From positions 21,266,001 through 21,330,000 of the forward strand of contig JAGIQG010000018.1 in NCBI GenBank assembly GCA_024679065.1: 64,000 nt of DNA, given 5' to 3'. The DNA comes from Sphyrna mokarran. Its lineage: Eukaryota. The notes below the pieces were generated by a model, which saw only the letters and a program-made list of their open reading frames with translations, was not told the origin of the DNA and did not search any database. Of this stretch, positions 7,282 to 34,340 are shown one piece after another. The translations under genes and the position numbers were made by a program. Within the stretch, counting starts at the first letter, position 1. The number at the start of each line of letters is the position of its first letter.

Positions 7282-7837
7282 GAACATCCCGGAGGAGAAG
7301 CTGAAAATAAGAACTATGTTTGAAGGTACATCTGTCAATGGAGCAAAAGTAGCAGTAACCTCAATGGATGGAGCTGGTTTAGAAGCTGAGCAGAAGAAAA
7401 GCAGGGCCCGTGAGCGTAGAAAAGAAGGGCGTTCAAGAACATTTGATTGGGCAGAATTTCGTCCCACGCAACAAGTACCTAGTGTCGGATATGTTCACAG
7501 ACCCACTTCCCTGTACCTTAGGACTATGACTAATTCTGAAACAGATTCTGAGGAATTGGAAAGGGACCGTGCACGACGGCGAGAGGAGAGACGTAAACGA
7601 TTTGAGACAACAGATGCTTCTTTTTCCTTGGGTTACAAGGATGTGAACAGGATGGAGGTGGATGGGGCCACCACATCCCCGGGAGCTAAAAATGTTGATG
7701 TTGAAATTGAGCATAGATGGCAACAGGTGGAATGTACACCATTGCGGGAGGAGAAACAAGTTCCAATCCTCACTACACCGACCTCTAGTGAAGGACAGTC
7801 CTCTGCTCGGGACCTGCCATTAATACTGGACAAGAAG
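7282..7837 (+). CDS. MPRIP: MPRIP internal exon (after PH domain 2); upstream exons lie outside the window
   Basis: ag|GAACATC ... AAGAAG|gtaagg. Peptide EQKKSRARERRKEGRSRTFDWAEFRP and VEIEHRWQQVECTPLREEKQVPI matches my recall of MPRIP. Phase 0 end. Confidence 0.95.
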
Positions 7838-8106
7838 GTAAGGACGGACCAATCATGTAAGACTTTGTAACTGATTTTTCAGTTATTTGTGGAAACAGAA
7901 AATATTTAGATATGTAAAATTAGAACAATATTCCACCTTTATTAATGCCTTAGAATGTAAGAAACCTTTGAAAAAAGGCCATCTTTTTAACTTCTCACCC
8001 TAACTCTCAAGGTTCTGTAAATGATCCAAGCTCTTTTCACTTCTAACATGTTACTCAATCTAACATGTACGTTAATTGCTTTTAGTTCCTGTGAGGTACG
8101 AAAAAT

Positions 8107-8373
8107 TCACAGAATCCCTACAGTACAGAGGCTATTCAGCCCATCGAGTCTGTACTGACCACAACCCCACACATTTACTCTGCTAATCTCCTTGACATTA
8201 AGGGTCAATTTAGCATGGCCAGTCAACCTAACCCACACATCATTGGACCGTGGGAGGAAACCACAGCATCTGGAGAAAACCCACGCAGACACAGGGAGGA
8301 AGTGCAAATTCCACACAGACAGTGACCTGAGTCCCTTGTGCTGTGAGGCAGCAGTGCTTACCATTGTGCCGCC
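8107..8373 (-). mobile_element. V-SINE (HE1-like)
   Basis: Head GGCGGCACAATGGTAAGCACTGCTGCCTCACAGC, V-domain and CR1-like tail on the reverse strand. Confidence 0.85.
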
Positions 8374-9887
8374 TTGGGATTTCTGGGATGTTATTTGTAT
8401 CCTCTACAGTATAGGCCAATGCAAAATACCTGTTCAATTCCTCTGCCATCTCCTTATTTCCTTGTATTAATTCCCCAGCCTCACTTATTCTTTTTCAAAT
8501 GTCTATAGAAAATTTTACCATTTGCTTTTATGTTTCTCACTAATTTTATTTCATATTCTAATTTTTCTTTCCTTATTAATCTTCTAGTCATTCTTTGTTT
8601 TTTTATATTCTGTCAAATCTTTTGATTTGCCACGCAGTTTTATGCAATTGTATGTTTTCCCTTTAAGTTTGACACTATAATTAGCTTTTTTATAGTTAAT
8701 TACAGATGATGGACTCTCCCCTTGGAATGTTTCCTTCTCTTATCATATTTCTATTCTGTGAATTCAGAAATATTCCCTTCAATGTCTATCACAGCAAATC
8801 TATGGACCTTAACCTAATTTCCCAATTCACTTTACCTAGCTCTGCTTTCATGTCCTCATAATTGTCCTTTTTTAAATTTAAAATTACTAGTCTTGGACCC
8901 ATTACTTCTTCCTGAAATTGATCTTAAATTCAATTATATAACGTTTGCTGCTTCTTTTATATTTAAGTGGCTGTATGATTCTTTTAACAACTGGTGATAT
9001 GGTTTGTGGTGATGTCATTAGGGTGTTACACATTCTGCTGTTTAGTTTTAATTTGTACTATATATAGGAAAAAGCATGTAGAATAAATATGTCATTGTTA
9101 GTTTGAATCTACATGTCTAAACCACATATTTTCTTTTTGTTTAAAATGCACAACCCCTAACATAATTAAGATATTACAAAAATAAAATCAGTGATGTGTC
9201 AAAATTTTATTTCATTGAGAACATTGAAAAATATCCTGAGTACAGGAAAAAAGACATTGTGAGTCTTCAAACTTCAAATATTAGAAAGCTGGGGAAGAAG
9301 CAACAATAGGATTAAAGATTGAATTGCCATAAATGAATGCTAAGTAAGAAATAAAAAGGTGGATGTACTTTGTATGCTTCTAATAGAGAGGATAAAAGGG
9401 TAAATAATGGAAAGACTGTAAAATGCTCAGCAGTCTCGAGTCATTCGTGCCTGCAAGAGAAATGACAAGTCAAATCGGTTCTATGAGCCCTTTCAATTAA
9501 GAAAATGAATCATAGAGTTCCTGTGCAATACATTTTCAGTACTTTGTACAAGCAAACAAAATTGCAAACGAATTGCTGTAACCAGCTATTCTCAAAACAA
9601 TTGGAAATATCGTCAATTTGTTCTGGAACTTAGTTCATGCAGCAAAGTCAGGAACTAAAACTGATGATGACTTGACAAAGATCTTTGAAGAGCATTACTA
9701 TCCAAAGTCACTGATCATTACAGAACAGTTCAGGCTCCATTCGAAGAAATCAAATGGAAGGCAATAGCATTGCAGAGTTTAAGGCAACCTTAAAAAGGCT
9801 GGCACAACATGTGGGTTTGGTCATTAGAAGATTCTCCTCGAAATTGTTTAATTTATGGTCTCCAAATATCCAAAGAAGATTGCTTAC

Positions 9888-11930
9888 TTTTTTGTATTCA
9901 TTTGTGGGATATGGGCATCGCTGGCTGGCCAGCATTTATTGCTTAAACCTCGTTACCTTTGAGAAAGTGGTGGTGAGCTGCTTCCTTGAATCGCTGCAGT
10001 CCATATGCTGTGGATTAATCCACAGTGCCATTTGGGAGGGAATTCCAGGACTTTGACCCCATTGACTGCGAAGGAATGGCAATTTATTTCCAAGTCAAGA
10101 TGGTGAGTGGCTTGGAGGGGAACTTGCAGATGATACTGTTCCTTTGTATCTCCTGTCCTTGTCTTTCCAAATGGAAGTGGTTGTAGATTTGGAAGATGCT
10201 GCCTAAATAAGGATCTATGGTAAATTTCTGCTTAGCACCTTGTGGAGAGTACACACTGCTGCTACTGAGCATTGGTGGTGGAGGGACTGAATGTTTACAG
10301 ATGTGGTGCCAGTCAAGTGGGTTGCTTTATCCTGGATAGTGTCAAGCTTCTTGAGTATTGTTGGAGCTGCACCCATCCAGTCAAGTGGGAAGTTTCCCAT
10401 CACAATCCTGACTTGTGGTTTGTAGACATTGGATAGGCTTTGGGGAATCAGGAGGTGAGTTACTTGTCACAGGATTCCTAGCCTCTGACTTATTCTTTGA
10501 GTCATTATGTTTATGTGGCAAGTCCAGTTGAGCTTTGGGTCAATAGTAACCCCAAGGATGTTGACAACGGGGGATTCAGTGATGGTAGCACCATTGAATG
10601 TCAAGGAGAAGTGATTAGAATGTTTCTTATTGGCGATGACCATTGCCTGGTGTTTGTGTGGCATGAATGTTACTTGCCACTTGTCAGCACAAGCCTGAAT
10701 ATTGTCCAGATGTTGTTGCATTTGAACATGGACTGCTTTGGTATCTGGGAAGTTGTGAATAGTGCAGAACATGAATACTTTTCACTGTCTGTTAATACAT
10801 GTGACAGTAATAAATCAAATCAAAATCAACACTACGCATTCATCAGTGAACATCCCTATTTCTGACTTTATGGCAGAGGAGAGGTTATTGATGAAGCAGC
10901 TGATGATTGGGTCTAGGACACTACCCTGAGGAACTCCTGCAGAGCTGTCCTGGAACTGAGATGACTGCCTCCCCCTTCCAAACAGCACAATTGTCTTCCT
11001 TTGTGCTAAATATGATTCCAATCAGTAGAGAGTTTGCTCACTGATATCCATTGATTCCAGTTTCGTTAGGATTCCTTGATGCCACACTTGGTCAAATGTA
11101 ACCTTGACATCAAGGGCTGTCACTCTCACTATACCTCTGGAATTCAGCTCTTTTGTCCATGTTTGAACCAAGTCTGTAGTGAGGTCAGCAGCTGAGTGAC
11201 CCTGGTGAAACCCAACTGGGCTTCACTGAGCAGGTTATTGTTGAGGAGGTACGTTTGATAGCACTATTGATGACCTCTTCCATCAATTTTCTGATGATCG
11301 AGAATAGACTTGATGGGATGGTAATTGGCTAGGTTGGATTTGTCCTGCTTTTTGTGTAGAGTAAGAAGTCTGACAACACCAATTTATTTGATAGTAAATT
11401 CACAAGCTTTCGAGGTTTCCCTCTACGTCAGGTGAATGAAGAGTTCTAGCCTCAGACAGAGCATATAACAGCACAGACAATTAACAGATTACTGATTAGA
11501 ATGCAAATCTTTACACCTGCTATTCAAGTCTTAAAGTGGCTAACAGTGTGAGTGGACGGAGCACTGAGCACAGGTTAAAGAGATGTGTATTGTCTCCAGA
11601 CAATACAGTAACTGAGGTTTTGCAAACCCAGGCAAGTCATGGGGGTTACAGATGGGTTCATATCGCACTAAGATCCCTGTTTGTGTACAGGACATACCAT
11701 AGCAATTGTCCACATTGATGGCAAGTTCTAAAGCACAAGTCTTCAATACTTTTGCCGGAATGTTGTCAGGGTCCATTGCTTTTGCAGTATCCAGTGGCAC
11801 CAATTGTTTCTTGATATCACATGGAGTGAATCGAATTGGGTGGAGGCTGGCATCTGAGATGCTGGAGGAGGCCCAGATGAATCATCCACTTGGCACTTCT
11901 GGCTGAATATTGCTGCAAATGCTTCAACTT
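9888..11930 (-). mobile_element. CR1/L2-clade LINE inserted in the Gypsy element
   Basis: ORF remnants SAGVPQGSVLDP, WQVTFMPHK, ILGVTIDPKLNW and LDTAKAMDPDNIPAKVLK. Confidence 0.85.
11360..11660 (-). mobile_element. Penelope-like terminal repeat fragment containing a minimal hammerhead motif
   Basis: Same terminal sequence as the Penelope element at 50531-52175 (GTAAGAAGTC..ACAACACC..TTTATTTG). Confidence 0.75.
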
Positions 11931-14020
11931 TGTCTCAACATGCTTTGACTCTAAAGTCAGCAGTAGAAATCACAATGTTGATGGAATAGATGGAACTGGC
12001 TGCTAAAGAGGTTTCACAATTTGATGCAGGCATAAAGGTGCACAAGTTGAGAACTGCCCAAAAAAAAGCAAAAACGGCAACAAGCATGTTAAAGATGTGC
12101 CAAAATGGGCCACTCAAAGTAATTGCTGAAACAAGGATAGATAGCAAATGCAAGAGTTTGTGGCAAAATGGATCACATTGCAAAAGCTTGTTGGGCTAGA
12201 CCAGCCTCCACTGAGAATATTCAGAAGAAGAATTTGGGTACCTTCAGGAAGAACAAGTTGCATTCTAGAAAAATAATTTGCAATTTGGAAGAAAAGAACT
12301 ATGACCATGATGAAGAGTTCCAACTGAACCCTATTCATACAAGGTGCGTCACCGATTCTGGGTAATTTCGAAGGCTAGTATGGAAGTTAACGCTGGTGCA
12401 GTTGTATTTTTAATTCCTGAGACTAAATAACAAGAGCTGAAGCAGCTTCCTTTAAAACGAATTGATGTGATTTTAAGAACACACATAGACGAGATTGACC
12501 ATGAAGTAACCTGTTAACGGCACAATGTAGAGTTGAATGGAAAAACAGTGGAGTTGCCTCTCCATATGGTCTGTGGAAATTTTCTAGCTCTATTTGGGAC
12601 ATTGTGGTTCAAAGGTAAAGCTTAAGTGGAGTGTTGTAAACAAGTTGTTTGATGCCAAAACAGACCTACATTACTTTCTGGATAAATGCAATAGTCAACC
12701 AAAAAGTCTCAAAGCAAGAGCAGTGCCATATGCAATTTGTCCCAAGGCTGAAAAAGGATTAGCATGACTTATGAATACTGGTGTGTCATAACCAGTTACA
12801 ATGTGTGATAGGACTATCCCTATCATAACCATCATGAATCTAGATGGTCCAGTTTATATTTGTGGTGATTTTAAAACAACCATAAATACAATGTGTTGAT
12901 CAATAGCCGCTCCCTTTAATTGAAGATTTGTTTGCTGAGTTTTCAGGTGAGCAGAAATTCAGCAAGATTGATCTTTCACAAGTACATTTACAAGTCAATG
13001 TAGCTGTTGAATCTCCTATGTGTAACATCATAGTAATTTGTTGCCATGACCACAGAAGTAAAAGGAAAGGGTGTTATATATTTAAGTTGTTGTATGATTG
13101 ATTGTTTTAAGAGCTGGTGACATAATTTGATGGTCATGTCTTTTGGATGTTATGCGGGCTGCTGTTTTATTTTAGTTTTTATAGAAAAAGCTCTGAGACT
13201 AAACCTGTTGTTAGTTTGAATCTATATATGCAAACCACATCTTTTCTGTTTGTTTAAAATACACAACCCCAACATTAGAGAAAACTATACTGCTACTGAG
13301 GGACACCTTCACATAATGTCATTCATTAATTCTAACTTGTTGCACAATATCAAACCTACTACAGCCTGCTCATTGGTTGGCTCCAAAATGTGCTATTTTA
13401 AGAAACTATCTCAAAAGCATTCTAGGATTTCCTCATTTAGCCTACATTTGCCCATCTGATTCTTTTAGTTCTTATATTCCCCCATGATTATCGCATCTTG
13501 TGATATCGGTTTTGCACAACATTGGTTTCCACTGTCTCATTGTGATAAACTGATTCAGACAGACTCAGAAATAAATGAAAATAATTTCAAGCTAACAACC
13601 TTTTAGTGCTGAATTCCTGTTCAGGCCAAATACACTTCATTCACAAACTTGTAGCCAAGTATATGTTGTAGTAAGATTATATAAGTAAGCTGTCAATCAA
13701 CAGTCGCAATACAGAAACATTGCTGCTTAGTTTTACAAATTACTATTATTTTATCTCAGTGCTGAAATTCTGTTCAAGCTGGTTTTCTTTCCTCAGCAAA
13801 CCTGCACTCTGTCAGCCTCTTAATATTATAACTTTGTTTATCTAGTTCCTCAATAGAGAAGTATAATTCCTTTTCCAATTATTTAACCCCTGTCAAAATG
13901 TAGTGCATCTATAAGGAATTGTAATTCTGTAACTCCTCAACAATTCTTGTTCCCAGTCATCTGTTTCCCCCTTTAGGAAATCGTAATTATTTCAATGAGC
14001 TATGCTTTTTATCTCAACAG

Positions 14021-14137
14021 TTGGAACAGTCACATCAGGAGGTCTTCAGGTTACATGAACAAAACAGAGAATTGCAGGGGCAGCTGAGGGCGGCTCTGGA
14101 GAGGGAGCACAATGCACGGGATGGTTATGTTCTTCAG
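14021..14137 (+). CDS. MPRIP: MPRIP exon LEQSHQEV...RDGYVLQ (117 nt)
   Basis: caacag|TTGGAA ... CTTCAG|gtaagc; phase 0/0; resembles mammalian LEQSQ...AREGYVLQ. Confidence 0.95.
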
Positions 14138-14912
14138 GTAAGCGAAAGATAACCATTGTGCTACATCACTCAGGACTGTGGTCAGTAACACTGAGCTTGT
14201 TAATACTAAATTTTGTGCTCATCAACAGGGATTCTGTATTTAAATAATGATTCGTTGCACTTAATTGTTTAATTGAAAAATAGCATATTAAGAAATATTC
14301 TGTATTTGTATAGTTATAAATATAATACAATGTGGTGTTATATATATGCAGCACACCTCTTCAGTACTGTAAATTTTTACTCTTGCCCAGTTTATTTTGT
14401 GTTTCGTCCTCTTTATTTGCATGTTAATATGTGGCATGAAAACTAACTTTTGGGATTACCATTGAGAGTCACATCTCTGGCCTTTGCCATCAGGACAGCA
14501 CAGCTGAATGATCATGTATACTGAGCTACACTTCTGCTTCTTTTCCCAACGTACTGTATTAGTGCATGGCTTTGGTGCTGAGAGTTTTGCATGTCTGACT
14601 CTGATTATTTGTCTTCTGTGCATTGTGGATTGGTGGATTTGTCACAATTTGAATTTTCTCCAGAAATTCAGAATACTTGTCCCTTCCCCCCATCCATTTG
14701 TCTGGCACTCAACTATTCCAGTTGTTAAGAAGCTTGTTATTGGATACAGGCAGAAAGGTGAGGCAAACCACGTAACATGGAAAAGATCACAGTAGACTAA
14801 CCTATAATCTGACACTAGCAGTACCTTTCCTGGTCCAGTTTTGGCCAGAGGTGTGACATTCAGTATCTGGAGAAAAGAATGTTATTAACTAATCTCTCAT
14901 CATCTTTTAAAG

Positions 14913-17900
14913 TCAAAAGGAATATCCTCACCTTCAACTGCCTGGAAAAGACTCCAAAAACTAAACCGAGATATCCAAAATGAGCTCATAGCTTAATACG
15001 AGCAACAAACCCTGGTCAGTCAGCAACTGCAAATTTTAAAACAAAGCTATGAGGATGCAAATGATATTATCCACAGACAGGAGATGGAAATACAGAAACT
15101 GCAGGGACAATTAAATTGTGCAGTGTCTGAAGGATTGGGTCATGTACAAGTATTAACCAACAAAAGCAGGAATGACTACTGAAAACCAGAGGATCCAAAA
15201 CAAACAGAGTGGAGTCAAAAAGGGAAAACGATGACACTCCAATTAAAGGATAGAGAAGACAGTCCACATATTGTAGAAACTTCAGAGAAAATTCAGACTT
15301 CCAAGGAATTGGCAAAACAACAGACTCATCGAACAGGTTTGTCAGATAGATTATGTGACATCAACATTAAGTTTGGGAACCAGAAAGGCTCCACAGGAAC
15401 AATTAAATTTTAAAAAAAACTTATGAAGAGAAAAGGGAGATCCAAAGACAAAACATAAGGACCACAGAAGAAAAACTTATGCAACATGAGAATAAGCAAC
15501 AGATGGAACATCTGGAGATACCAGTAGGTTCAATAGAGAAGTGCCAGATAATGCACCAACTGGAAGAAAAGGAAATAACCATTAAATCTCTCTCACTGTG
15601 TCTTAAAAAGCTTAATAATGAAAGGGAAAAGCTGAATTCTAGATCTAAAGAGCTAGTTAATCAATTAATAGAAGTTGATGCTCAGAATGCCAAGTTACAG
15701 AGTCAGCAGACTCAACTGGACAATCTGGAAAGCTCATATGAAAAGTTATCTGGTGCATTTCAGCTAACTCAGAAAATGTTAGAAGAAAAGAACACAGAAT
15801 TGAAGGAGTCCAAGGAGGTACATGAAAACCTCATTGCAACTAAGAACAGAAAGCTTAATGAAGCCCTGGTTAAGCTGACTGCTCTGGGGAGTAGCCTGGA
15901 GGAGGCAGAGAATAAACTGCGGGCCAGAGAGGCAGCTTTGCAGAAATTCTGCTCTTCTAGTTCCAACACAAGTAGTATAAGTAGTAGAGAAGACTTTGAG
16001 TTGATGTTAAAACTGCCAATGTCATATTATTGAGCTGGAACAAAAATTAAATATATTGCAGCTTGGAAATGAAGAGCTTGAGCTTGAAAAATGACAAACT
16101 TAAAGAGGAACTCAGAGTTTCTGAAAATGTTCAAGAGCAACAATACAAAGAAATTATAAAACTATAGAAGAATTAAAAAGCCAGCTGGACTCTAATAGCC
16201 TTCAGGCCAGGGAAACAAAGCCACAAGTTTGCAGCAGCAACCTGTAGTTGCCCTAAAACTCAAAGAATTAGGTTTTCCAATACACTTTGTCAAAGATACA
16301 GTCCTGATGACGTAACAGAAAAATTGTGGGTCACAAACACTTCGGACATCACCCCGCATGGATGCTGTTCTGAAAAAAGGACCTTATTGGATGCATTAGC
16401 ACAGTGAACTCACAAAGATGATGCACAATTGTGCATTTCCACTGTTCATGCACTAGAATACAAATTTAATGTTAGTGAAGAAAAAAAATGACGTAAATTT
16501 GAAGTTGGAAGAGCAGCAAGGCAGAAGTTGAGAAAATTTAATGGAAAAACATTCTACATTTGTCCCAACTGAAGTGGAGCTGCAGGACAGTTTGTCTAAA
16601 ATTGATGCATTGACAATACAACTTGAAGTAGAAAAAGCATGGGACTGGAAGCTAGCCCAAGATACCAGTAGCCAATTAAGGTCGATGCAGCTGGAGTATG
16701 ACCAAGTCTGTTCACTGATGGGTACCTGTAAGCAAAATATCCAGTGTCATCTTGGAGGTAGGACTAAGGCAAAGAAAGTTCAGTTTTGTAGCTTGTCAGA
16801 GATGAAAAGTAGCCTGGCTGATGCTTCACATTGCTTGGAGTAGGTGGAACGATTCCTCCAGCAGTAGCGCAAAGAACTTCAAGAAACCCAAGACCAGATG
16901 CAATGTAGCACAGCTGATAGGACTGTACCGCTCCATGGACAGTTTGTTTTGGCAAGGGAGAAGGAACTATCTCAGCTTCCTGAGATGTTGGATAAGACAA
17001 ACTGAAACTTTTTGCTAATAAACTAGCTTTTGAAGCCTGAATTCTTTAAAAAGTGGCACAAGCTTTGCAAAGTAAAGATAGCGATGTTGTACGGAGCTTA
17101 AAAAGCCTCAGTAAAGAAGCTGAGATTTTGTCATCAGTTTTGCCTGCTTTAGACACGATCCGAAAACCACATAGCGCTGCAGACTTTGCAGATATTTTAC
17201 TGAAGATAATTATTTCGGAAGGAGAATTCTGGATAGAAGTAGAGAAGTTGAGGAAGAACATTCAACCAGAAGGAACTGCTGATAAGAAAACGGGAGAAGA
17301 TTTTGATAGTTTTATTAATGAGTTTGCCAGCAGAGCAGCTGATAGGGCATCTCTTAAGGCAGAGCTGGCATTCACAGTGCAAAAGATACAAGAGTACTTC
17401 AGTGCAAAAGTTGGGAAACTTAAAAAAGGCATTCAGGATGCTCAGCAGCAAATCAAACATAAAGAGAATATGTTGAAAGAAGTTCTAATAGCTACCAAGA
17501 CTGTTGAGATCAATAACACCATGCAGCAACTTTTGAGGGAACTTGAAAACCCAACTGACCCGGCAGAAAATGTGCTAATTATGAACCAGCCAGTGCTTAT
17601 TTCATATGCTGAACAAATCAAAAGGGAAGAGGCCCGGAATCTGGCTTTAAATGTTTTCGATAAGCAGTTGAAAAAACACCTTTCTGAGAATAACATGGAA
17701 TGGGAATTTTCCAGAACAGTCAGAGAAGAATTAGCTGAACAGTTAAAGAAACGAGCAATAGTTCTTCATCAATTATCTGAAGATTTGCAGGGTCCAACTG
17801 TTGAGGAAGCCAGCAGCATTTGTCAGAAGCTGTCAGAGATCTCACAAGTGTTATCATCTTACATCTACATGTGAAACATGAATAATTATGTATCTGTGAT

Positions 17901-18759
17901 GGTGCAAGAAGCCATGATTCAAGCTCAGATTACTTGCATGGTCTGTAGAATGAGCACAGGGCATGAGATGAAGCTCAAAATATATAAAGATTCATGTGAT
18001 AGTATGAACTCCTTATGCAAAGAACATGCAAAAAACCTTGCTTCTGTACGGGCAAAATATGAACAAATACTTCAGAAGGAATTGCATGATTATAAAGATG
18101 CATTTTCAGGGCTTGAAAAAGAAAATGAGACCCTCAGGATGCAGGCCTTGTTGCAAGACTCAAAATTAGAACTAAAACAAAAAGAATTACAAGAGATGCA
18201 AGAAAAGCACAAGCATCATCTCCATCAGACTGAAATAGATTAGTGCTTTGGGGAGTAGCCTGGCACTAAGCAAAAAACTGATTAATAGGGAAGAGGCGCT
18301 GAAGAAAAGAAGGGGTGATAACAGTCAGGAACAAGAACATGGAGAGAAAATTAAGAAATTAGAAGAAAGCTTACAAGATAACACAGAAGAATGTCTGATA
18401 ATGCATGAAGAGGAAAAGCATAATTTGTATAACAAACATGAGCAAAAGGTTAGACAGTTAAGAAAATTTCTGAAACCTCAAGGAGAAAGTTCAAAAATTA
18501 TATTTCACCAAAATTTCTTGATGCAGAATGGTGATTCCTATGATCAAGCAGGTGGTCAGTGCAATACCATGGTGATCAGTAGAAAGTTGCTGCAAGTTGA
18601 GGGGCAGGTGGAACTGGACTCCATGACAGTGCTGCATAAACGAATCCAAGAACTAGAGACCCAATGGACATGATGCGTGATGAACTGGGGCAGAAGCACC
18701 TAGAAGGAACCACTGCAGACCTAAGGAAAAAATACCCAAGAGACTTTGACAATCTGAAG
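14913..18759 (+). pseudogene. MPRIP: Disabled homolog of the MPRIP giant alternative coiled-coil exon (pseudoexon)
   Basis: Begins aag|TCAAAA SKGISSPSTAWKRLQKLNRDIQNEL, contains LNEALVKLTALGSSLEE, and ends LRKKYPRDFDNLK|gt. In-frame stops at 14994, 17038, 17047, 17872 and 18241, several frameshifts, and a length of 3847 nt that is not a multiple of 3. Confidence 0.85.
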
Positions 18760-19858
18760 GTTTCTGCATAAGTTAACACTAACACATTAAAATAACACAT
18801 TAAGCTCTAAAATTTGTATATCCAATAAAATAGTTGCATTTCTAGTAGCTACATTCTGACAAATTGTTCAGATTGAACAATCTAAAGAGATGAGCAGATT
18901 CTTGCACATAGGATCTCATTAGCATAAATATTTCACTTAATTATCTATTGTTAAACTGCAGTTAACATGCTACTCTATAGTGAATGAGTTCTTGGGGTGT
19001 TCCATTGTATCCTGTATAGAAGCAGGATGCAATTGATGATCTGCTCATAATTTGATTAATGATGCAATGATCAAAAAAATGCATTGTCTTACCCAGAGCA
19101 ATCGGACATATTATAGTAGTTCCTAAATATGCACAATGTAATTAAATAGACTTTCTCCTCTGAACTTTACTGTTTTTAAGCATTAAGCCACCTAGGCTTT
19201 AATCTGTCTCTTTCTTACCCATCAATTTCATCTTTAATATTTTTTCTGATTCAATGTCATCATTCAATCACTATCTGATGTTTAAATATCTTGCAAGCAC
19301 CTTGGCATCACAAACCAGTTGATAAAATTTTGTACATTTTTAAAAGATGTTTTATCCTCCACTCCTGAGCATTCAGGCTCATTAGTTTATTGTCCCTAAA
19401 GTTACCCAATTTTCATGCATGAACAAAGTGCACATTGATTGACTAATTATCTTTTGGGCACGCCACAACTAACTCCAATTGCTTGCGCATTTGACATAAG
19501 CAATTTTCACCAGTTAATGCTAGACAGTTAAACAACAGCCTTGGATGATTTTTCTCCTCCCAGTTCAGAGCATTGGTGCCAAGTCTACCATGCCAAAGTG
19601 TTTTGTAATACCAATACTCAACTAACCTAACTTAACATGACCTGGGACCTGAACATGGGATCTCCATGGTCTTTATGGTTCAATGTCACGCATCAAAAAT
19701 GTTGCATGTAACACTGAGCCATTGGGGTAGCCTCTGTAGATGCTAAATTGAGATATAGACAAACACATGTTACTGCTGGTTTTTATTAATGAAAACTTGA
19801 AGTCATCTCAGTAAAAAGATGTGATGCACAGTGAACAAACTTGTTTCCGTTCTGACAG

Positions 19859-20006
19859 GAAACCTGTGAGCGTGGTTTTATAGCAATGGAAGAATCACAT
19901 CAGAAAGTGATTGAGGAATTACAGAAACAGCACCAGCGAGAACTGGAGAAACTACAGCAAGAGAAGGATCGTCTACTGGCTGAGGAAACTGCTGCAACCA
20001 TAGCTG
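19859..20006 (+). CDS. MPRIP: MPRIP exon [16 protein letters not shown]...EETAATIA
   Basis: gacag|GAA ... GCTG|gtaaat; phase 0/1. Confidence 0.96.
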
Positions 20007-20082
20007 GTAAATTGGGAAATTTCCCCAATTGGGGAAAAAAAATCATATCAGATTCTAGATTTTGCTTTTGAATCAGTAACAT

Positions 20083-20402
20083 ATAAGAGAATCCCTACAG
20101 TGCAGAAGGTGGCATTTGCCCCATCAAGTCCGCACCGATTCTCCAGCAAAGCATTCCACCAGACCTAATCCCTGTAAATCCATGTCTTTATCCTGTTAAT
20201 CCCCCTACCCTACACATCTTGGGATACTAAGAGGTCAACCAACCTAACCCACACATCTTTGGACTGGGAGGAAACTGGAGCGCCTGGAGGAAACCCACGC
20301 AGACGCAGGGAGAACATGCAAACTCCACATAGTCATCCAAGGCCAGAATTGAATCCAGATCCCTGATGCTGTGAGGCTGCAGTGCTAAACACCCTGCTGT
20401 CC
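20083..20402 (-). mobile_element. V-SINE (HE1-like)
   Basis: V-domain and CR1-like tail on the reverse strand. Confidence 0.85.
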
Positions 20403-20409
20403 TATGATA

Positions 20410-21195
20410 TCCGATCCCAAATTCTTATTTTTTTGTAATATGTAATACACCATGAGCCATCATTCAATTCTTACCATGAACTCCATTGTCAGCCACCCAT
20501 TCCTCCATTTCTCATAGAAACTGAGACTGAACTAAACTCTTGATGGTTTTTTAAGAGTTGTGTTTGACTTCAAACACATATTTTTATGTCATCACTAAAA
20601 CCTGTTGTTTCCACCTCTGTAATGCCATCTGACCCCATCCCTGCCTCATCTGCTACTGAAACATCTGTATCTTTTGTGATATCTAGACTTAATTATTCCA
20701 ACTCACTCCTGGTTCAGCCTCCTATTTTCCATCCTACGTAAACAATGAGTTAGTCTAAAATTTAGCATTCTGTATCCTAACTCTAGTTCTATGCATCCAC
20801 AACCACTCTGCTTGCTGTCTTAATTCACTCCGACAATGCCTCAATTTTAAAACATGCATCTTTGTTTTCAAATCCATTTGTGAACTCACTTCTTGATAGC
20901 TGTACATTCTCTTCCAGCCTTTCAATCCCCTGAGATATCTATGTTTCTCCATTTCTGGTCTCCCGTGCATCCCTGGTTTTAATCACACCATCATTGATCA
21001 GCCCTAGGTCTGGAATTTCCTGACTGTCTCACCTCACCCCTCCTTTAATGCACACTTGATAATTTCTTGACCAAGCTTTTGATCATCTGCCAGAACATTG
21101 CCTTAGCTGGTTCAGTGTCAAATTTTATTTATAATGCTCCTATGAAGCACCCTAGGACATTGAACTACATTAAGGCTGCTAGTGCTGTTGTTGCA
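20410..21195 (+). mobile_element. Old L2-like LINE 3' fragment
   Basis: SRLNYSNSLL-like remnant near 20680, LVFKS remnant and an L2-type tail near 21140-21195. Confidence 0.6.
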
Positions 21196-21369
21196 TGTGA
21201 GCCAAACATTATGCCACATCTAGTTCTAACGAACAGTCAAACATTCACTGTTTTCTCTCCTTACAGATCCTGCCAGACCTGAGTTTTTCCAGCGTTGTCT
21301 GCTTTTGTTTTAGATTTTAGTATCCATAGTATTTTGTTTATATTAATATGTTTTGCTGTTTCTTTGTAG

Positions 21370-21487
21370 CTATTGAAGCAATGAAGAATGCCCACAGGGA
21401 GGAGCTGGAGCGAGAGATAGAAAAAACCCACCGGTCTCAAACCAGTGGTATGAATGCTGATATGGAGGCTTTGGGGAGACAGCACAA
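21370..21487 (+). CDS. MPRIP: MPRIP exon AIEAMKNAHREELERE...RQHK
   Basis: tgtag|CTATT ... CACAA|gtaagc; phase 1/2. Confidence 0.96.
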
Positions 21488-22264
21488 GTAAGCATCTCAC
21501 TTACACATGCATTCCCAACTGAGTAGCAATGTATTCCTAATACAATGGGCTCTACTTGTATAATATTCACAATTTGCTATAGTGGTTAAAAATTTGTTAC
21601 AATAACACTTACAAGATCTCTGTTTTGGCTTCTCAGTTCTGAACTGAGTATTCTGATTTATCAGCATCAGAAGACCCTGGTATCATTCTCCTGTGTCCAA
21701 CTTGAAGCCTAGTGTCACCAGTAAAATATTCTGGAGCCCCTACTGAGTCACCTACGCCAATCTTCTACAGCTGTAATTTTATAGCATACCCATTGCTTAG
21801 ATAGAAAACTGTATTTACTGTTTTAGCACCATGGTGTCCAAGTTTTCAGACTATCTTCAATACATCAGAACTGCTGGGTTTTTTCAGAGGCTAAGTTTTG
21901 AGCTTAACTTTAGCTAATACAAAAACTCTACAATATCCTGATGAAAGATATTTCTTTATTGACCAATGTATACTGAGAGAGAAGGGCTGGGCAATCCAAC
22001 AGTTCTCTGAAGTTACATCAAATTGGCCGTATAATTATTAAATTTCCAAAAATTATTTTACACACCCACTGGCTCATCCCAGTTGGAAATAAACCAATTA
22101 TCATTATTACAGGTCAGTTATTATTAGTAAATGTCATATGCCTTGGCTAATTACAGTTTTCCTCAGACAGCATTGGAATAGTGGTTGCGAATGATTTTTG
22201 ACAATTTTCCCATGGCCACCTGTTTAAGATTCCGCATCTTATCTGGTTGAAAGCTTTGTCTATT

Positions 22265-22598
22265 CATAGAAACCCTACAGTGTAGAAATAAGCCCTTCGG
22301 CCCATTGGTACACCGACCACAATCCCACCCAGGCCCTATCCCCATATCCCTATGTACTTATCCACTAATCCCTCTAACCTACACATCCCAGGATACTAAG
22401 GGGCAATTTTAGCATGGCCAATAAACCTAACCTGCACATCTTTGGACTGTGGGAGGAAACCGGAGCACCCGGAGGAAACCCACACAGACACAAGGAAAAT
22501 GTGCAAACTCCACACAGACAGTGACCCGAGCCGGGAACTGAACCCAGGTCCCTGGAGCTGTGAAGCAGAGTGCTAACCACTGTGCTACCATGTCGCCC
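22265..22598 (-). mobile_element. Near-complete V-SINE (HE1-like)
   Basis: A/B-box-like head (GGTAGCACAGTGG; GGTTCAGTTCCC), V-domain and tail. Confidence 0.9.
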
Positions 22599-22654
22599 TT
22601 TAAACTGTCTGGGTTTGCTAGCTTTGTCCTTGGCTTATGAATTTTCTAATCGGA

Positions 22655-23880
22655 CATAGAAGATTGGAACAGGAGAACATTTAGCCCTTTGAGCCTGCTC
22701 TGCTATTCATTATGATCATGACTGATCATCCAACTCAATAGTCTAATCTTGCATTTTCCCCATAAACTTTGATCCCATTAGCTTCAAGTGCTATATCCAG
22801 CCACCCCTTGAATACTTTCAGTGTTTTGGTGTCAATTACCTCCTATGGTAATGAATTCTACAGCTCACCACTCTTTGGATGAAGAAATGTCTCATCACCT
22901 CTGTCCTAAATGGTCTACCCTGAATCCTTGGACTGTACCCCTAGTTCTGGATTCCTGTACCATCAGGAACATCCTCCTAGAATTCGTCTGAACTCCAGTT
23001 AACCTAGTCAATTTCTTCTCATACGTCAGTCCCACTATCCCCAGAATCAGCCTGGCAAACCTTCGCTGCACTCTCTTGACAGCAAGAACATTGTTCCTCA
23101 GAAAAGGAGACCAAAACTGCACACAATGCTCTAGTGTGGCCTCACCAAAACCCTGTATAGTTGCAATAACACATTCCTGCTCCTGTACTCAAAACTTCTC
23201 ACAATAAAGGTCAGCATTTCATTTGCCTTCCTTACTGCTTGCAGCTCCTGCATGCTTACCTTCAATGACTAGTGCACAACGACACCCAGATACACTCTCC
23301 TCTGCCATTTTACAGCATTCAGGTAGTAATCTGCCTTCTTGTTTTTGCTTCCAAAGTGAATAACCTCACACATATCCAAATTATACTGCATCTGCAATTG
23401 ATTTGCTCACTCACCCAACTTGTCCAGATCATTCTCAAAGATCTTTGCATTCTCATCACAGTTCACCCTCCCACCCAACTTGGTATTATCTGCAAACTTT
23501 GAGATGTTACATTTTGTTCCCTCATCCAAATCATTAATATATATTGTGAATAGCTGCAGTCTCAACACTGATCCCTTGGCACCCTATTAGTTATTGTCTG
23601 CCAATTTGAAAAGCACCCATTAATTCTTTGTTTCCTCTCTGCCAACCAGTTTTCGATGCTTCCCCCAATTCCATATATTTTAATCTTACGTGATAATCTC
23701 TTATGTGGGACTTCGTCAAATGCTTTCTGAAAGTCCAGATATACTGATATCAATTGTTTCTTCCTTGTCAGCTCTACTTGTTACGTCTTCAAAAAATTCC
23801 GACAGATTTGTCAAACATGATTTCCCCTTCATAAATCCATGCTCTCTCTGATCCTGTCACTGCTTTCTAAATGCCAAGCT
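22655..23880 (-). mobile_element. Decayed CR1 LINE
   Basis: VYLDFQKAFDEVPH and QFWSPFLR..VQRRFARL remnants; same subfamily as 44160-45300. Confidence 0.85.
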
Positions 23881-24239
23881 ATAAAGTTCATAAGGACTGT
23901 CTAGAGTCTTTATTGATAACAACTATGCTTCCGTGGATGGATTGTTATAAAAAATGTGGTTCACTCCACTGGACTATTTTCCCGTAATGCCTTAGAACTC
24001 TGCCATTGGTCAATCTTTAGCATACTTTTCAGAAATACATGTTTAAATTCTTTAAATGTGATTGTGTTTCTATGCAAACAATACCTGTAAAATATATGTA
24101 AAGGGTAGTCTGTGATTTTTATCCTAAGTTAATCCATTCTGTTTTAATTGTTTTTATTAATGATTTAGTCCCAGGGTATTTTAAATCTCTCTCACAAGAC
24201 CCACTTTACATACTTACCTTTCTGAATTTCTAAATGCAG

Positions 24240-27040
24240 ACTAGGGGAAAGCTTTGCAAAACACCTTCGCTCTGCCTGCAAGTTTGACCCCAACCTTCTG
24301 GTCACTTGCTATTTGACCTCAACGTTTTGCTCTTATGTCCATCCTTGGCCCGCTGCAATGCTTCAGTGATGCCCAAAGCGAACTGGAGGAACAACACTTC
24401 ATCTTCTAATTAGACATGTTACATTGTTCTGGATTGAACACTGATGTCAATAACTTTAGACTGTGAACTTCCCTCCGTCTTGACACCCCCCCCCACTCTT
24501 TACCCTTGGTTTGTCCCAATGCAAACATAACTTTTCCCCACCATACATCACTTCTTTTCAGTTTTGCTTTTCAGTGAACGCTGACCTCTTCTTTGAAAAC
24601 GTTCTGATATCTTACCTTTATGCCACACTAATCACTGCAAGGAATTGACGAATAACAAAGCAAATAAACGAACAGGAGGTTTATTTTGGAAAAATAGCTA
24701 TATATAGGACAGTGAGAAGAAAGCTCAAACAACAAATCAACTCCAGCTGTCAAACAATCACGTCTCTGTGATACGCCCAATGGTCCCATTGGTCATGTGG
24801 TCCCAATAACCTATACCCACCAATCACGCCCCACCCCCCCCAAACACCATCACATCTCTTCTTTAATTTCTTAATAAATGTTTTACAATAACAATAAAAC
24901 TATTTATAATGTTACACCACAAAGGGACTGGATGTTAAGCAGTCTTCCAGGGATCCAATATTACCTAGAAAATATCTTGGTAACAGGTTCCATAGATGAA
25001 GAATACTTGCAGAACTTGGAAGAGATGTTGAAGAGACTTTAGGAACATAAGCTGCAGATTAGGAAAAAGAAGTGAGGTTCTTAGGGACTCTGTCAAATAT
25101 TTAGGAAATGTTATCAACGTGGGAGAGTCACATAAAGTAGCAAAGAAATTGGGGGCCATTATGAAGGCATGAGATTGTAATACATATCCCAGTTGAGCTC
25201 CTTCCTGGAACTCATAAACTATATAGGCAAATTTGTGCCTAATTTGGTGACAATACTGAAATCACTGCATCAGTTATTGATGAAGAGGCAAGTATGGAAA
25301 TGGGTGCCGAAGTGAGTCCTTGCTCATTTTAATCTGAGATTAAGCACTTTAGCTGGCCTGTATTGTCTTGCCATGTGGCGTGAGAGCGGTTCTGTTCTTT
25401 GTGATGGCAAGTGGGGAAGATAGGCCCTTCCTCACTTCCCTAGATGCATTTGCATCTAGGTCACTCTCTAAATTGGAAGAAAACTATGTGCAAGTAGAGA
25501 AGGAGGCACTATATTGGTATTACAAAATTTCATTACAATTTGTGTGGCAGGCAGTTTATCTTACTGGTTGACAACAGACCACTGTTGCAGTATCTATCTT
25601 CATTTTTAGTAGTCATCCATTCACCATTAATACAATTACAATTGGGGTTGACTTGCTCATTTTAGTATTGTTTATTTTGTATATTTCAGTTTCTTCTTTG
25701 GAATTATTTTTAAATTATACTCTGGAGTCTTTTATGTGCTCCTTGTTTAGCTTTGTTTCGCTCTGCATTTAAGCTAATACACTGCCTCTTGTTTCAGGCA
25801 AAACAAGTTACAACTTTAAATTTACACCTCTCCTGAGGGTGCTGTCAACCATACGGCTAGCATTCTTCTCAGTTCTTGGTCTGCAGAGCGGACATTCTGT
25901 ATCTCTATTCCGTGTCTTGCTTGTTGCTCTGACTCTCAGCTTTCAGAGCCCTCGTCCCTGATGCCACAATTCCCTGAGATTTCTCACCAAAGTTGGTTGA
26001 CCTCATCTAGTTGCATGCTTTTAACTCTAATACACCTTTCTCAGTGCTTTCTGTAGCCTGAGCAATCTTTAACACTCTTGTTGAGGTAAGCCCTGTCTCT
26101 GTTAATAACTTTTTTGTATGATAAGGTTATTCACATCACAAACCAATCCATCTCTCAACATTTTGTCAAGTGTCAACCTGAATTCACATTGTTCAGCTGT
26201 ATAAACCATGCCATGGATGCTGCTAATGCCAACCTGGATTCTTATTGTAGAATTAAATTTATATCACTCCATTATTACCAATAGTTTTGAATGATGGTGC
26301 TCTTTGTTCAGCCAGCTGCTCAAATGTTTTTGTATCTGAGGCCTATGGAGAAATCAGACTTTGAATTAGATGGTAAGTCCAAGCTGTGCAGGCTGTCATA
26401 AGGAATACCTACTGCGTTTCCTTCCCTAGGGTCAACTGCCCCCCACTATTTCATTAGCCCCCAAAATTAAGGCATTTTGGCGTTAAAAATTTGTTGCAGT
26501 ACTATTTCTTAAAAGGACGTGGTGCCTCAAGGACTGTTCTCCCAACTTGTAGCAAATAACAGAAAAAAGTTCCACTTTATCTCGTTGCTAACTGTAATGA
26601 CGGTAATGCATTAACAAACAACAAGGAAAGTAAAGAAAGAGGTTCAGTTTGGAAAAACATTAATAAACATAGGACAGCGATAAGAAAGCTGACCTTCAAC
26701 TATCAAACAATTGCCTCTCCGTGATTGGCCCGATGGATTACATGAACCCAATAACTCTCACTCCCTTCACAAAGTCACCATAGTCACTAAAACACTTTTT
26801 TTAGTCTTTAATGCCACCATTAACACCCTCTTTGTCATGTCCATGATATCTTTTTCAATCTCTCCAGAGCACCGACAGACCCCAACCTTCTATTCTGTCC
26901 CCCACTATACAATTCATGACATTACTACCCCTCTTCAGTTCTGTGGAAGAGTCGTATGGATTTGAAACGTTAACTCTTGTTTGTCTCTCCACAGATGCTG
27001 CCAGGCCTGCTGAGTTTATTCAGCATTTTCTGCTTTTGTT
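24240..27040 (+). mobile_element. Penelope-like 3' fragment (~24240-24630 and ~26790-27040) split by a Gypsy insertion
   Basis: GIY-YIG-tail-like ELEEQHFIF*L...GLN near 24380-24460; terminal sequence with a degenerate hammerhead-like core at 26937-26975. Confidence 0.6.
24636..26790 (-). mobile_element. Decayed Gypsy LTR element, LTRs ~24636-24853 and ~26593-26790
   Basis: Similar direct repeats, a PBS-like TAGCAACGAG next to the right LTR on the - strand, and gag remnants on the - strand. RT/RNase H remnants (YLENILVTG, FASRSLS..E.NY.Q.EKEAL) lie on the + strand. Confidence 0.7.
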
Positions 27041-27172
27041 TAAAAATATTGTTGTGAATGTGAGAATTACTTCTGACTGAAATATATGTTCTGCCTCCTT
27101 ATATCTTTTATTTTTAATTTTAATCTGACTGTCCTCGCACTGATCACTTGGTGATTCTTTACTCTCTTTTAG

Positions 27173-27332
27173 AGAGGAAATGGGTTCTGTCCAGCGTGAG
27201 TTGCAGGTTCTCTCAGAACAGTACTCACACAAGTGTTTGGAAAACTCCCATCTGGCTCAAGCACTAGAGGCTGAACGACAGGCACTTCAGCAGTGTCAGC
27301 GTGAAAATCAGGAGCTAAATGCTCACAACCAG
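27173..27332 (+). CDS. MPRIP: MPRIP exon EEMGSVQRELQVLSEQYSHKCLEN...ELNAHNQ
   Basis: ttttag|AGAG ... AACCAG|gtaaca; phase 2/0. Confidence 0.96.
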
Positions 27333-27759
27333 GTAACACATATATTGCTAAAAGGATCACGGAACTAAACAGCTAGAGGTAAGAGTACAGAATTACCAGA
27401 ATACAATGAAGATTGGATGTGATTTTGCGATTAAAGTGACCATTGGCCTCTGTGTCTCTGTACCGGGAATGAGAAAAGTCATCCAAAATTCCTATTCTTA
27501 AGCATTATTCACAGATTTCTGCAAGATGTGTTGTAAAAGCAGGATTAGCTGATTATTATTGGCGGAATCATAATACCCTGAATAAGTGGCTTCAGAGGAT
27601 AGAAGAAAGGAGTAAGGAAAAATAAGGAAAATGTTTGAAGCCTGTTGCCTCAGCTTTTAATTCTCCTGATGAATTTTCCAGAGCTGTAAAACATGTAGAA
27701 TGATTATTCCTGTGGTATTACAAGATGCCAGCTGTTGTCCCAATCTAATTATTTTACAG

Positions 27760-27879
27760 GAGCTAAATAACCGCCTGGCTGCGGAATTTGCAAGGTTAAG
27801 AGCGCTGGTTACTGAGGAGGGAAAGGGAGAGGATGCTGGTTCACCCCACTCACTGGGAAAAGATGTCTATGAACTGGAG
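27760..27879 (+). CDS. MPRIP: MPRIP exon ELNNRLAAE...GKDVYELE (GC donor)
   Basis: ttacag|GAG ... CTGGAG|gcaagt; 120 nt, phase 0/0. Confidence 0.92.
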
Positions 27880-28209
27880 GCAAGTATCATTCCTTCTTGC
27901 TGGAGGAGGTTGCATGTAAACAGTGGCTTCATTTTACCTTTCTGATGATTATTGGGTGATGCAGTTTAAATATCTGCTATCTGAACTGGGGAGGCCAAAA
28001 GAGTGAACAATTACTGTTCGCACCGAGAATCAAAACATCACGTGTATACCGTACGCTTGTACTTCCGACCTTATGTTTTCACGCAAGCTCTTCTGCATTG
28101 CGCGTTTCCTTTCTTTGTTCCTTCTGCTTCTGAGTACCTTGAGCAAATCATACAGTCAAGATCGCAGTTAAAATGACAATAAAGTTTCTATCTTTTGCTA
28201 AATTTCCAG

Positions 28210-28296
28210 GTTTTATTGCGGGTCAAAGAATCTGAAATCCAGTGTCTGAAACAAGAAATTAATTCTCTAAAGGATGAACTGCAGACTGCACTGAGG
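28210..28296 (+). CDS. MPRIP: MPRIP exon VLLRVKESEIQCLKQEINSLKDELQTALR
   Basis: ttccag|GTT ... CTGAGG|gtgagt; 87 nt. Confidence 0.96.
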
Positions 28297-28399
28297 GTGA
28301 GTGAATGCAGATGGGCAAGAGAAATCTCAATAACTCTATATAAAAATAAAACATGTATTTTTGAGTTCCTCGCTATAGGGCAGATGTAACAATAAATGT

Positions 28400-29260
28400 A
28401 TTATTTGTTCTTGGAATACTGTTGTCACTGGCCAGCATTTATTGCTCATCCCAAATAGTCCTCCAGAAGATGGTAGCGAGCCCCCTTTTTGAGTTTTTTT
28501 TGAGCTGCAGTTCATATAGTGTAAGTACACCAGAGCTGGTAAGCAGGAAATTCCAGGATTTTGATCCAGCAACAGTGAAGAAAACAGTGAAGATAGTTCC
28601 AGATCAGTATGGTGTGAAACCTGGAGGGAAGTTAGAGGTAGTGGTGTTTCCCTGCAACTGCTGCCCTTGCACATCTAGGTGGTAGAGGTCATGGTTTTGG
28701 AACGTGTTGTTGAATGAATCTTAGCTGCAGTGCACCTTGTAGATGGTGCACACTGCCACTATGCATTGTAGTGGGAACAGTGCCATTTAAGCAGATTGCT
28801 TTGTCATGGATGTTGTTGGAACTGCACTCATCCAGGCACATAAAGAATATTCCATCACACTCCTAATTTACGTTTTGAGAGTCAAGAGGCGAATTAGTTA
28901 TCACACAATTTTCAGCCTCTGACCTCAATATTTAATATGGCTGGTCACTGGCATCCCCAGGATGTTGATGGTGAGAGATTTATCAATGATAGTACGTTGA
29001 AAGTCTTGGGGAAATTGTTAGATTGTCTCCTGTTGGATATGGATATTGCCTGGCATTTGTATGGCATAAATATTGCCCTTATCAATCACTGAATGTTGTC
29101 CAGTTTGGACACAATTTCAATAAGTGAGGAATTGAACATAATGCAATCATCAGCAAATATCTCACATCTCACTTCTCGCTTACGCTAGAGAGAAGATCAT
29201 TGATTAAGCAGCTGAAAATACTAGAACTCAGGACAGTACTCTGAGAAACTCCTGTAGCAA
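28400..29260 (-). mobile_element. Old CR1/L2-clade LINE 3' fragment
   Basis: Colinear with the copy at 9888-10950 (GGCCAGCATTTATTGC end). Confidence 0.75.
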
Positions 29261-29945
29261 ACAAATTGCAATAATATCAAGAGTCTGAGACATATAGACA
29301 TATTGGAGAAACTGATGCTGATTTTTTTGGAAATTTTAAATATTCAAAATGATAAATGAAATTGATGAAGTAAACAAAACCAAAGAGACATGCTTTGTGA
29401 TCTTAAGCATGACATAAAGAGGGAGATGTTTGAATGTAACTAGTGGCAATTATGCTAAATTAGTTACAGCATTCAGAAAAATGTGGTTAATTCATTGAAT
29501 ATCAAGTAGCATGGGATTGTGTGAAATGTGTGTCAAGAGCAATCTAAATTCAGCAAGGGCAGTAAGGATTGGCTGATTTCTGCTTGTGCTAAAAAATGTT
29601 TTTTGTGGGCATGGTGACCAGTGATTCAATCTTCTAATTCCTGCTAAGGAGAACTCTGTGTTCATACTATAGAGTATTCTTATTGATATTAATATCCTGC
29701 TAGAAGTCAGTAACTTCTTTAGTGCCCTATTTATTGGCTGTATCTCTGCTGATCTTAATCCAAAATACTCTAACTCCTTGTTTCCTAAGACATTATCACT
29801 TGTCATAGTTTTGAATAATTCTCTAGAAAATCAAAACAAAATGTACATTGATAATTTTATTCTTGATAAAGTTTGATTTTTCCTTTAGAAGGCATCCTGT
29901 ATACTAAATCAGTCAATTTAATTAATGTATGTTTTTTTTTGTAAG

Positions 29946-30105
29946 GATAAAAAGTATGCTACAGATAAGTATAAGAGCATCTACACAGAGCTGAGCATCG
30001 TTCGAGCAAAGGCTGACTGCGATGTCAACCGGCTAAAAGAACAACTAAAAGCTGCTACAGAAGCTCTGGGAGAAAAGACAATAGACTGCTGTGTTACTAG
30101 CTATG
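29946..30105 (+). CDS. MPRIP: MPRIP exon DKKYATDKYKSIYTELS...ALGEKTIDCCVTSY
   Basis: tgtaag|GAT ... TATG|gtaaag; phase 0/1. Confidence 0.96.
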
Positions 30106-30194
30106 GTAAAGATGTGGGAAACATGTATAACTCTTTTTATGTTAAAATTCAGAAAGGTATAATTTGTTAAAACATATTTATTAGTTGGGCAGCC

Positions 30195-32860: not shown

Positions 32861-33277
32861 GAAGCTGCCATGGTTACCAAAAATGGTAAAGTATGCTTGA
32901 CAGGCACAATGGCTTCCTTTCTCTTCCTTTTTCTTATATTCTTCTCCACGCTGCATAGGTAGTTATCATAAATTGTTGCATTTTGGTATTGTAAGTGCCA
33001 GCTAGTGTAAGGAATAGAGTAAGTACACAACAGAGGTTAGTAAAGTTGTATTTATCTACCTTTGCCTTCTCAGTATTAAGCAATGCTCTGGGCATAGTTC
33101 CCAGCTCATGTTTTTTTTGTTCTAATTTCTTGTATATGTTTCTCTTGATGCTGGAATATGCAGTTGTACTTCAGTTCAACAGACTAATTACCCTCTAAAG
33201 TTTTTTCCACATATTATTGCAGTTTAAATGTTTGTGAGATCACTAACTATTATTGTCTCCACTAATTCCACTGCCAG

Positions 33278-33363
33278 ATATCATGAAGTCAAAAAGTAAC
33301 CCAGATTTTTTGAAGAATGACAAGCCAAACAGTCGCAGATCTGTGAGGACCCTGAGGTCAAAA
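33278..33363 (+). CDS. MPRIP: MPRIP exon DIMKSKSNPDFLK...LRSK
   Basis: tgccag|ATATC ... TCAAAA|gtgagt; phase 1/0. Confidence 0.96.
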
Positions 33364-33689
33364 GTGAGTGTTGAACCCTCTATGCTCTTTGAGCAATGAA
33401 TGAGTGGACTTTTACAGTTTTGCATGTTTTCACTCCTCTGACTGTGGAAATTCAAGTAATTAATCCCTAATAAACAAACAGCATGCAGAATGGTGGGAAA
33501 TGGGGTTCTGAGTCGATGGGGAGAGAACCAAACTGAACTATTGACAAATGGTCCTCATTTTATGAATAGTGTGTGTAAGTCCAGTTAAGTTGAGCAGAGC
33601 TATATTTAAAATATTAGAATAAACATTGTTATTTGATGCCAGCTGCATCAGTGGGTTTCACTCAGAACCTCAACTAAAATTTATATCAG

Positions 33690-34340
33690 GCTTCACGCTT
33701 TCAAGGTACAAAACTCCCTAGGATCTTAAGAAATAGTGGATACATTGTTTTGATCATCTAGAATTTTCTAGATATTAGAGTGTTTCAAGTGGACTGGGAA
33801 GGAGCAAATGTAACTCCGCTATTCAAAGGAGAGAAGATGAGGAACTATATGGTTGGTTGGCCCTACAAGTAGCATGGAAATGCTAAAGTCTATAATTAGA
33901 GTCACCGTGGCCACAGAACACTTAGAAAATCATGATTGCATTGAGTAAAGTTGGCACAGACTTACAAAAAGGGAAATGATGTTTGACAAATCTTAGTGGT
34001 TTCTGAGGTTATTTCCAAAACATAAAGGTAATCAATTGATGTAGTGCATTTGATTTTTCAAAATGGTGCCACTCAAAGAAACTAACTCAAAGACTCATTG
34101 TAATCCTATTTCCTAGCACTATAGCCTTGCAGGCTACCACATTTCTGATGCAGATCTAGATATCTTGTAAATGAACTGAGTGTTTCAGCCTCAACCACCA
34201 ACTTGGACAGTGAATGCCAGATGTCTACCACTCTCTGGGTGAAAAAGATTTCCCTCAAGTTCCCTTGAAATTCTTCCACCTTAAATCTATGCTCCTCCAT
34301 TTTGTACACGTTAATTAGATCACTGCTTAGCCTCTTCTGA
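33690..34340. mobile_element. CR1 fragments in both orientations
   Basis: ANVTPLFK and CLTNL remnants on +; FFTQRVVDIWHSL on -. Confidence 0.65.

Follow-up and report, generated by a model that had tools for sequence, protein, structure and literature searches.

Lineage-specific decay of an ancient giant coding exon within an intact MPRIP gene of Sphyrna mokarran

The mpripa gene of Sphyrna mokarran contains a block of DNA that is, with a probability which we put at roughly 90%, a giant optional coding exon of MPRIP that has been broken, the gene making its short isoform by skipping it; the function of the exon was likely lost early on this shark's own branch and the sequence has likely decayed neutrally since. 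A unitary pseudogene-type loss confined to one alternative exon amounts to isoform loss, and the block fits this description through its many disabling lesions, its intact orthologues, the lack of a second intact copy that could replace it and a host gene which is intact and expressed. It differs from the usual case in its size, as its ~1290 codons make up more than half of the long protein, and in its age, the exon being found from sharks to mammals. The type of event is ordinary, and this is a new case of it: a working gene that, on good evidence, has lost an ancient giant isoform in a lineage-specific manner. All positions below refer to the window, i.e., the whole 64 kb stretch of DNA that was analysed.

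The block and its host gene

The block is A-rich (38.2% A) and coiled-coil-like; its length of 3847 nt is one more than a multiple of three, and stops are present in all frames. The intact counterparts in relatives comprise approximately 1284–1290 coiled-coil codons, the closest intact protein being that of Mustelus asterias mpripa, to which the block is identical at 1124 of 1267 codons (88.7%) in a frameshift-aware alignment. The boundaries of this alignment fall exactly on 14913 and 18759, and between them lie 14 frameshifts and nine stops, 23 lesions altogether (Table 1). The block, its ends and the stops named in a preliminary description of the window, among them the stop 28 codons into the exon, were all recovered at the positions given there; the several frame changes that it noted, including that at ~18663, are also present, and the full set of lesions is larger than the one it listed. 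That description regarded the stops as substitutions, which is correct for the others that it named, and for eight of the nine overall, but not for TAG 18241, which arose with a net 13-base insertion absent from all four relatives compared. The inserted segment (18244–18264), whose near-copy is located within the exon itself, 2.4 kb further upstream, looks like the product of a local template switch; a 27-base pattern spanning it occurs only once in the genome.

Table 1. Positions, in the window, of the giant exon of mpripa, its lesions and its neighbours
Feature	Position	Strand	Remarks
Ten intact mpripa exons	7283..36106 (span)	+	starts ~7283, 14021, 19859, 21369, 27174, 27760, 28210, 29946, 33278, 36047
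Upstream constitutive exon	14021..14137	+	intact, ends GYVLQ; translation and RNA joints
Acceptor AAG	14910..14912	+	AG intact; joint 14137→14913 used in X13, X24
Dead giant cassette exon	14913..18759	+	3847 nt; frameshift-aware alignment and RNA joints
First premature stop, TAA	14994..14996	+	exon codon 28; Gln in relatives; in X2, absent from X13, X21, X24
Four frameshifting deletions (~15158, 15177, 15203, 15374) and TAA 15404	15158..15406	+	X2 as window; relatives differ
Eight frameshifts (~16010, 16087, 16160, 16224, 16399, 16416, 16481, 16995)	16010..16995	+	Mustelus alignment; 16087 and 16481 also in RNA-run comparison
Stops TGA 16529, TAG 16841, TAG 16865	16010..16995	+	Mustelus alignment
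Stops TGA 17038, TAA 17047, TGA 17872	17038..17874	+	sequence and Mustelus alignment
Net 13-base insertion/replacement with TAG 18241	18236..18260	+	core matches 15880-15900 at 19 of 21 bases
One-base deletion, frameshift	18662..18663	+	absent in 4 of 4 relatives; X2 contig 18451-18720 without difference
Donor GTTTCT	18760..18765	+	non-consensus, ancestral; joint 18759→19859 used in X13, X21
Downstream constitutive exon	19859..20006	+	intact, starts ETCERG; translation and RNA joints

The start of the gene lies ~163 kb upstream of the stretch analysed here. Within the window, the ten exons around the block were reported previously as lesion-free and this was found to be so, as it was for 13 further exons upstream, outside the window; these 23 matched constitutive exons encode 1133 residues with no stops. 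With lesions confined to the block and the short form expressed, the view that the long isoform alone was lost is upheld. A processed or duplicated pseudogene was ruled out, as the block is single-copy in a genome search and is located between its own exons; comparison of the block with the ESM Atlas gave generic coiled-coil clusters only. Identification of the gene as the MPRIP orthologue, mpripa, was borne out by a midpoint-rooted tree of the constitutive exons, from which five of the 23 selected rows were dropped as the exon anchor motif was not found in them. Here the gene forms a sister pair with Mustelus mpripa (support 100/99; 96% identity) and tetrapod MPRIP lies in the same 16-row clade (100/100), with the outspread-like proteins forming a separate clade. 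Together with the exon alignment, this points to a carcharhiniform shark that is nearer to Mustelus than to Scyliorhinus. Regarding synteny with human 17p11.2, where folliculin-domain genes are presumably located, the contig bearing mpripa has one folliculin-domain match, at a distance of 6 Mb. In annotation, the locus calls for a short gene model in which the block is a pseudoexon, and the exon should not be “repaired”. Elsewhere in mpripa, the donor GAG/GCAAGT at 27879–27885 marks a GC-AG intron.

Both the PH domains and the coiled coils at the C-terminus are retained in the short form; the long isoform has ~1290 extra coiled-coil residues just ahead of the latter. According to a study of the mammalian protein, these domains and coiled coils bind actin, RhoA and MYPT1 (bioRxiv 10.1101/2023.03.08.531807). 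The C-terminal coiled coils are the binding region for RhoA and MYPT1.

Splicing of the giant exon

Four sequencing runs, X2 from S. mokarran and X13, X21, and X24 from relatives (~94–95% identity), were treated as RNA because GT..AG joints were seen in them, none of the runs listed for the region being recorded as RNA; the organism's own RNA is represented by one run, as contigs only. Gaps in the cover by RNA contigs were not counted as evidence of absence. Skipping from 14137 to 19859, which had been predicted to preserve the frame, was confirmed, and the corresponding GT..AG joint was present in all four runs. In X2 this joint has a depth of 38.9 and lies in a 3004-nt contig with ~2.4 kb of spliced upstream sequence. 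The relatives show both skipping and inclusion: the joint 14137→14913 was found at a depth of 13.3 in X13 and 8 in X24, the joint 18759→19859 at 21.1 in X13 and 7.0 in X21, and the X13 exon contig implies a length of 3852 nt, a multiple of three. The inclusion junctions that the preliminary description proposed to look for in RNA were therefore seen in relatives only, the shark's own contigs showing the skip joint.

Both splice sites are intact. The acceptor context at 14913 is AAG/TCA, a site used in the RNA of relatives, and the donor AAG/GTTTCT is the same in relative D (run X5; 30 listed differences, none within 18757–18768). The weak donor, earlier counted as part of the decay, is instead an old property of the cassette, since it is unchanged in relative D and the donor of the paralogous exon described below is also non-consensus. 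A splice-site mutation as the cause of the loss was likewise rejected on the strength of this unchanged donor; at the acceptor the check extends to the AG, which is intact.

The exon belongs to a recognised class. Giant protein-coding cassette exons suppressed by SAFB have been described in ANK3, ANK2, MAP2, MAP4, MAPT, NIN, MPRIP, NASP, and CLIP1 as A-biased and purine-rich (PMC10901741). The block is orthologous to the MPRIP exon listed there and resembles it as a cassette of more than 1 kb (3847 nt) with an adenosine content above 33% and abundant purine motifs (6.2 per kb in the block vs 1.3 and 0 in the flanking introns, for four author-chosen hexamers). Both inclusion and skipping occur in X13, X21, and X24, with only skipping seen in S. 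mokarran, and the open frame present in orthologues has failed in the block. The block is now noncoding, whereas the accessible text of PMC10901741 covers human, mouse and fly splicing and reports no lineage loss. A splicing event in MPRIP, the exon not specified in the portion available, is switched by RBPMS (PMC6613909).

Low-depth X2 contigs (2.5–5.7) cover 16 of the 19 bins into which the block was divided, compared with one of seven bins in the flanking introns, and the block is therefore not simply silent intron. This cover may represent residual inclusion removed by nonsense-mediated decay (NMD), or priming on A-rich pre-mRNA. In any transcript that did include the block, translation would reach the stop at codon 28 with the next junction still 3.8 kb away, and NMD would be expected. 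In this, the block resembles the poison exons of splicing regulators, since a transcript including it would carry an early stop with a junction far downstream. Poison exons, however, are conserved and regulated, whereas the mpripa block is lineage-specific and decaying. We consider it very unlikely that the dead exon has become such a regulated exon, tuning the level of the short isoform by sending MPRIP mRNA to NMD, even though both splice sites are intact, the stop comes early and the shark's own RNA covers the block and not its introns. No inclusion joint was seen among the X2 contigs, one of which (18694–18959) passes the donor unspliced; splice sites are expected to survive by chance at a divergence of 3–4%, no signal of constraint was found, and residual inclusion requires no function. 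Nor is a stop-bearing form seen across species, as none of the seven relatives compared shares a listed lesion. The suggestion that the block acts as a poison exon or yields a truncated protein is accordingly unsupported in the organism's own RNA run, and a decaying remnant of a coding exon remains our preferred reading.

Age of the exon and tempo of its loss

Intact orthologues of the exon were found in 10 named chondrichthyans (Mustelus, two Scyliorhinus, Rhincodon, Stegostoma, two Chiloscyllium, Pristiophorus, Heptranchias, and Callorhinchus) as well as in bony fishes and tetrapods, in agreement with the earlier proposal that it predates the split between sharks and bony vertebrates. A loss common to the whale shark was discarded: the protein that lacks portions of the exon (P0001) comes from an older automatic model, whereas the RefSeq entry for this species is complete. 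A search for lesions common to other chondrichthyans, as had been recommended, found none among the differences listed for seven relatives (three RNA runs across the whole block and four other runs across 18190–18830). Differences held in common place S. mokarran outside the nearest sampled group (relatives B, D, and F), with H more distant; the best word share in another organism was 0.17, with no close congener among those listed. Among 68 matches to proteins of 805–2562 residues, taken from the best word-sharing candidates, the giant exon of mpripa was represented in far more distant teleosts but in no ray or lamniform shark; independent losses in rays and lamniforms are possible, as is a limit of the search.

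Residue changes in the exon, polarised by six outgroups, comprise 89 derived in the window and 18 derived in Mustelus (22 ambiguous) over 1185 sites, compared with 18 and 10 (15 ambiguous) over the 1133 sites of the constitutive exons. The excess over Mustelus is thus 4.9-fold in the exon and 1.8-fold in the constitutive exons, although the acceleration specific to the exon is modest given the faster constitutive rate of this lineage (Fisher p 0.04 with stops, 0.07 without). Between 18190 and 18759 there are 17 substitutions on this branch and seven on the path to relative D (p 0.06); the ratio of nonsynonymous to synonymous changes there is 12:5 on this branch, which fits the neutral expectation of ~2.7:1, but it is 5:2 on the path of the intact relative, so that the ratios do not discriminate and dN/dS gives no demonstration of neutrality. 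The exon is weakly constrained everywhere, with 79% identity between Mustelus and Scyliorhinus vs 95% at the C-terminus.

The stops themselves offer a further measure of time. Under three neutral models, 4.6–6.4% of substitutions create stops, so that eight substitution stops imply 125–175 neutral substitutions (95% range 54–345 over the three models), and the figure extrapolated for the full length of the branch after its separation from the nearest sampled relatives is ~120 (70–192). As the number implied by the stops is close to that for the entire branch, a loss early on the branch is the simplest reading, which suggests that the exon has decayed neutrally for most of the length of this terminal branch. 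Family-level splits within the order to which this shark belongs date to the Late Cretaceous (PMC9763247), and the loss is on this basis likely to be tens of millions of years old.

The preliminary description had taken the loss to be fairly recent, as no transposon has landed in the block. This was not borne out: young repeats occupy at least ~6 loci in the 64 kb, so that ~0.4 would be expected within the 3.85 kb block and their absence is uninformative. Dating by transposons was for this reason ruled out. A loss confined to the latest fraction of the branch, or one which is still polymorphic, would agree with the lack of a transposon throughout 13276–19855, the longest repeat-free stretch in the window, and with the identity to Mustelus that the exon still retains. 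However, it would have to accommodate 23 lesions, a stop count that calls for about as many substitutions as the branch affords, and the fixation in two samples of all eight lesions that were checked, and we regard it as highly improbable. The second of these samples is X2, which derives from the same organism but from a separate sample and study, and in which all 12 pieces match at ≥99% identity with zero changed places. It covers TAA 14994, TAA 15404 and the frameshifts at 15158, 15177, 15203, 15374, 16481, and 18662, so that the independent confirmation which had been called for was obtained, in contigs, for eight of the 23 lesions. Of 646 words sampled across the region, a fraction of 0.99 is present in DNA run X1, which may be the source of the assembly itself.

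The lesions are genuine. That they are errors of long-read assembly in an exon really intact is barely conceivable, for although a noisy GA-rich satellite at 45.5–49.8 kb may mark error-prone stretches, eight of the stops are substitutions, the 23 other exons are clean, X1 contains 0.99 of the words, and X2, from a second study, already refutes such errors for the eight lesions that it covers, the first stop included.

Paralogues and consequences of the loss

An outspread-like paralogue at ~45.42 Mb on contig C783 has a giant exon that is homologous to the block and sits at the same place as in mpripa, between the two corresponding exons (G000:C783:45424801-45428535; L008:801-4535). Unlike the block, this exon is intact: it is 3735 nt long and open over 1245 codons, with an AAG acceptor and the donor AAG/GTGTCC, and its identity to the block is 22–32% in the main matches. 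Among the best 120 of 390 matches its orthologues occur in rays, chimaera, coelacanth and ray-finned fishes (Amblyraja, Callorhinchus, Latimeria, and Polyodon), with none in tetrapods. The presence of the exon in both paralogues, flanked by the same neighbours, makes it older than the duplication which separated MPRIP from the outspread-like gene, and hence older than was first proposed. A third member of the family, which we take to be likely TRIOBP, lies at G000:C927:4.93-4.98 Mb and has no giant exon at the matching position.

The course of the loss may be pictured as follows. The exon was at the outset a cassette whose donor was weak and whose skipping or inclusion left the frame unchanged, and in the relatives both occur. 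As the cassette was already optional, the first stop or frameshift would have removed the long isoform only, leaving the short PH-PH-coiled-coil scaffold unharmed. The loss was perhaps tolerated through a putative redundancy with the outspread-like paralogue, whose intact giant exon may buffer the absence of the long MPRIP form. A wider scenario, in which cartilaginous fishes lost the giant mpripa exon repeatedly whilst the paralogue supplied the giant isoform, and tetrapods were forced to keep the exon, is unlikely as matters stand. It is nevertheless an open lead, as repeated loss together with retention in tetrapods would, if true, form a reciprocal-retention system with which to map the function of giant MPRIP.

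No account of the role of the long MPRIP form was found in the literature searched, nor was a loss of its giant exon in any lineage, most subscription papers lying outside that search. A shark lineage without long MPRIP is a natural knockout and a point of comparison for tissues in which relatives include the exon, and in the dead exon one can follow how an A-rich giant exon loses its splicing signals after selection on its coding has ceased.

Some repeats in and around the gene family were also recorded. The repeat-free stretch around the block spans 6.6 kb and includes both flanking introns, which differ by 5–6% from those of relative E. A young repeat at 53311–54883 is 94–99.8% identical to copies on C927 and is likely a recently active element, and a LINE-like ORF fragment lies within the matching intron of the C927 paralogue. 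The GA-rich minisatellite, at 45475–49806, consists of ~147 noisy copies with a period of ~27, and a similar array is present in an intron of the C783 paralogue.
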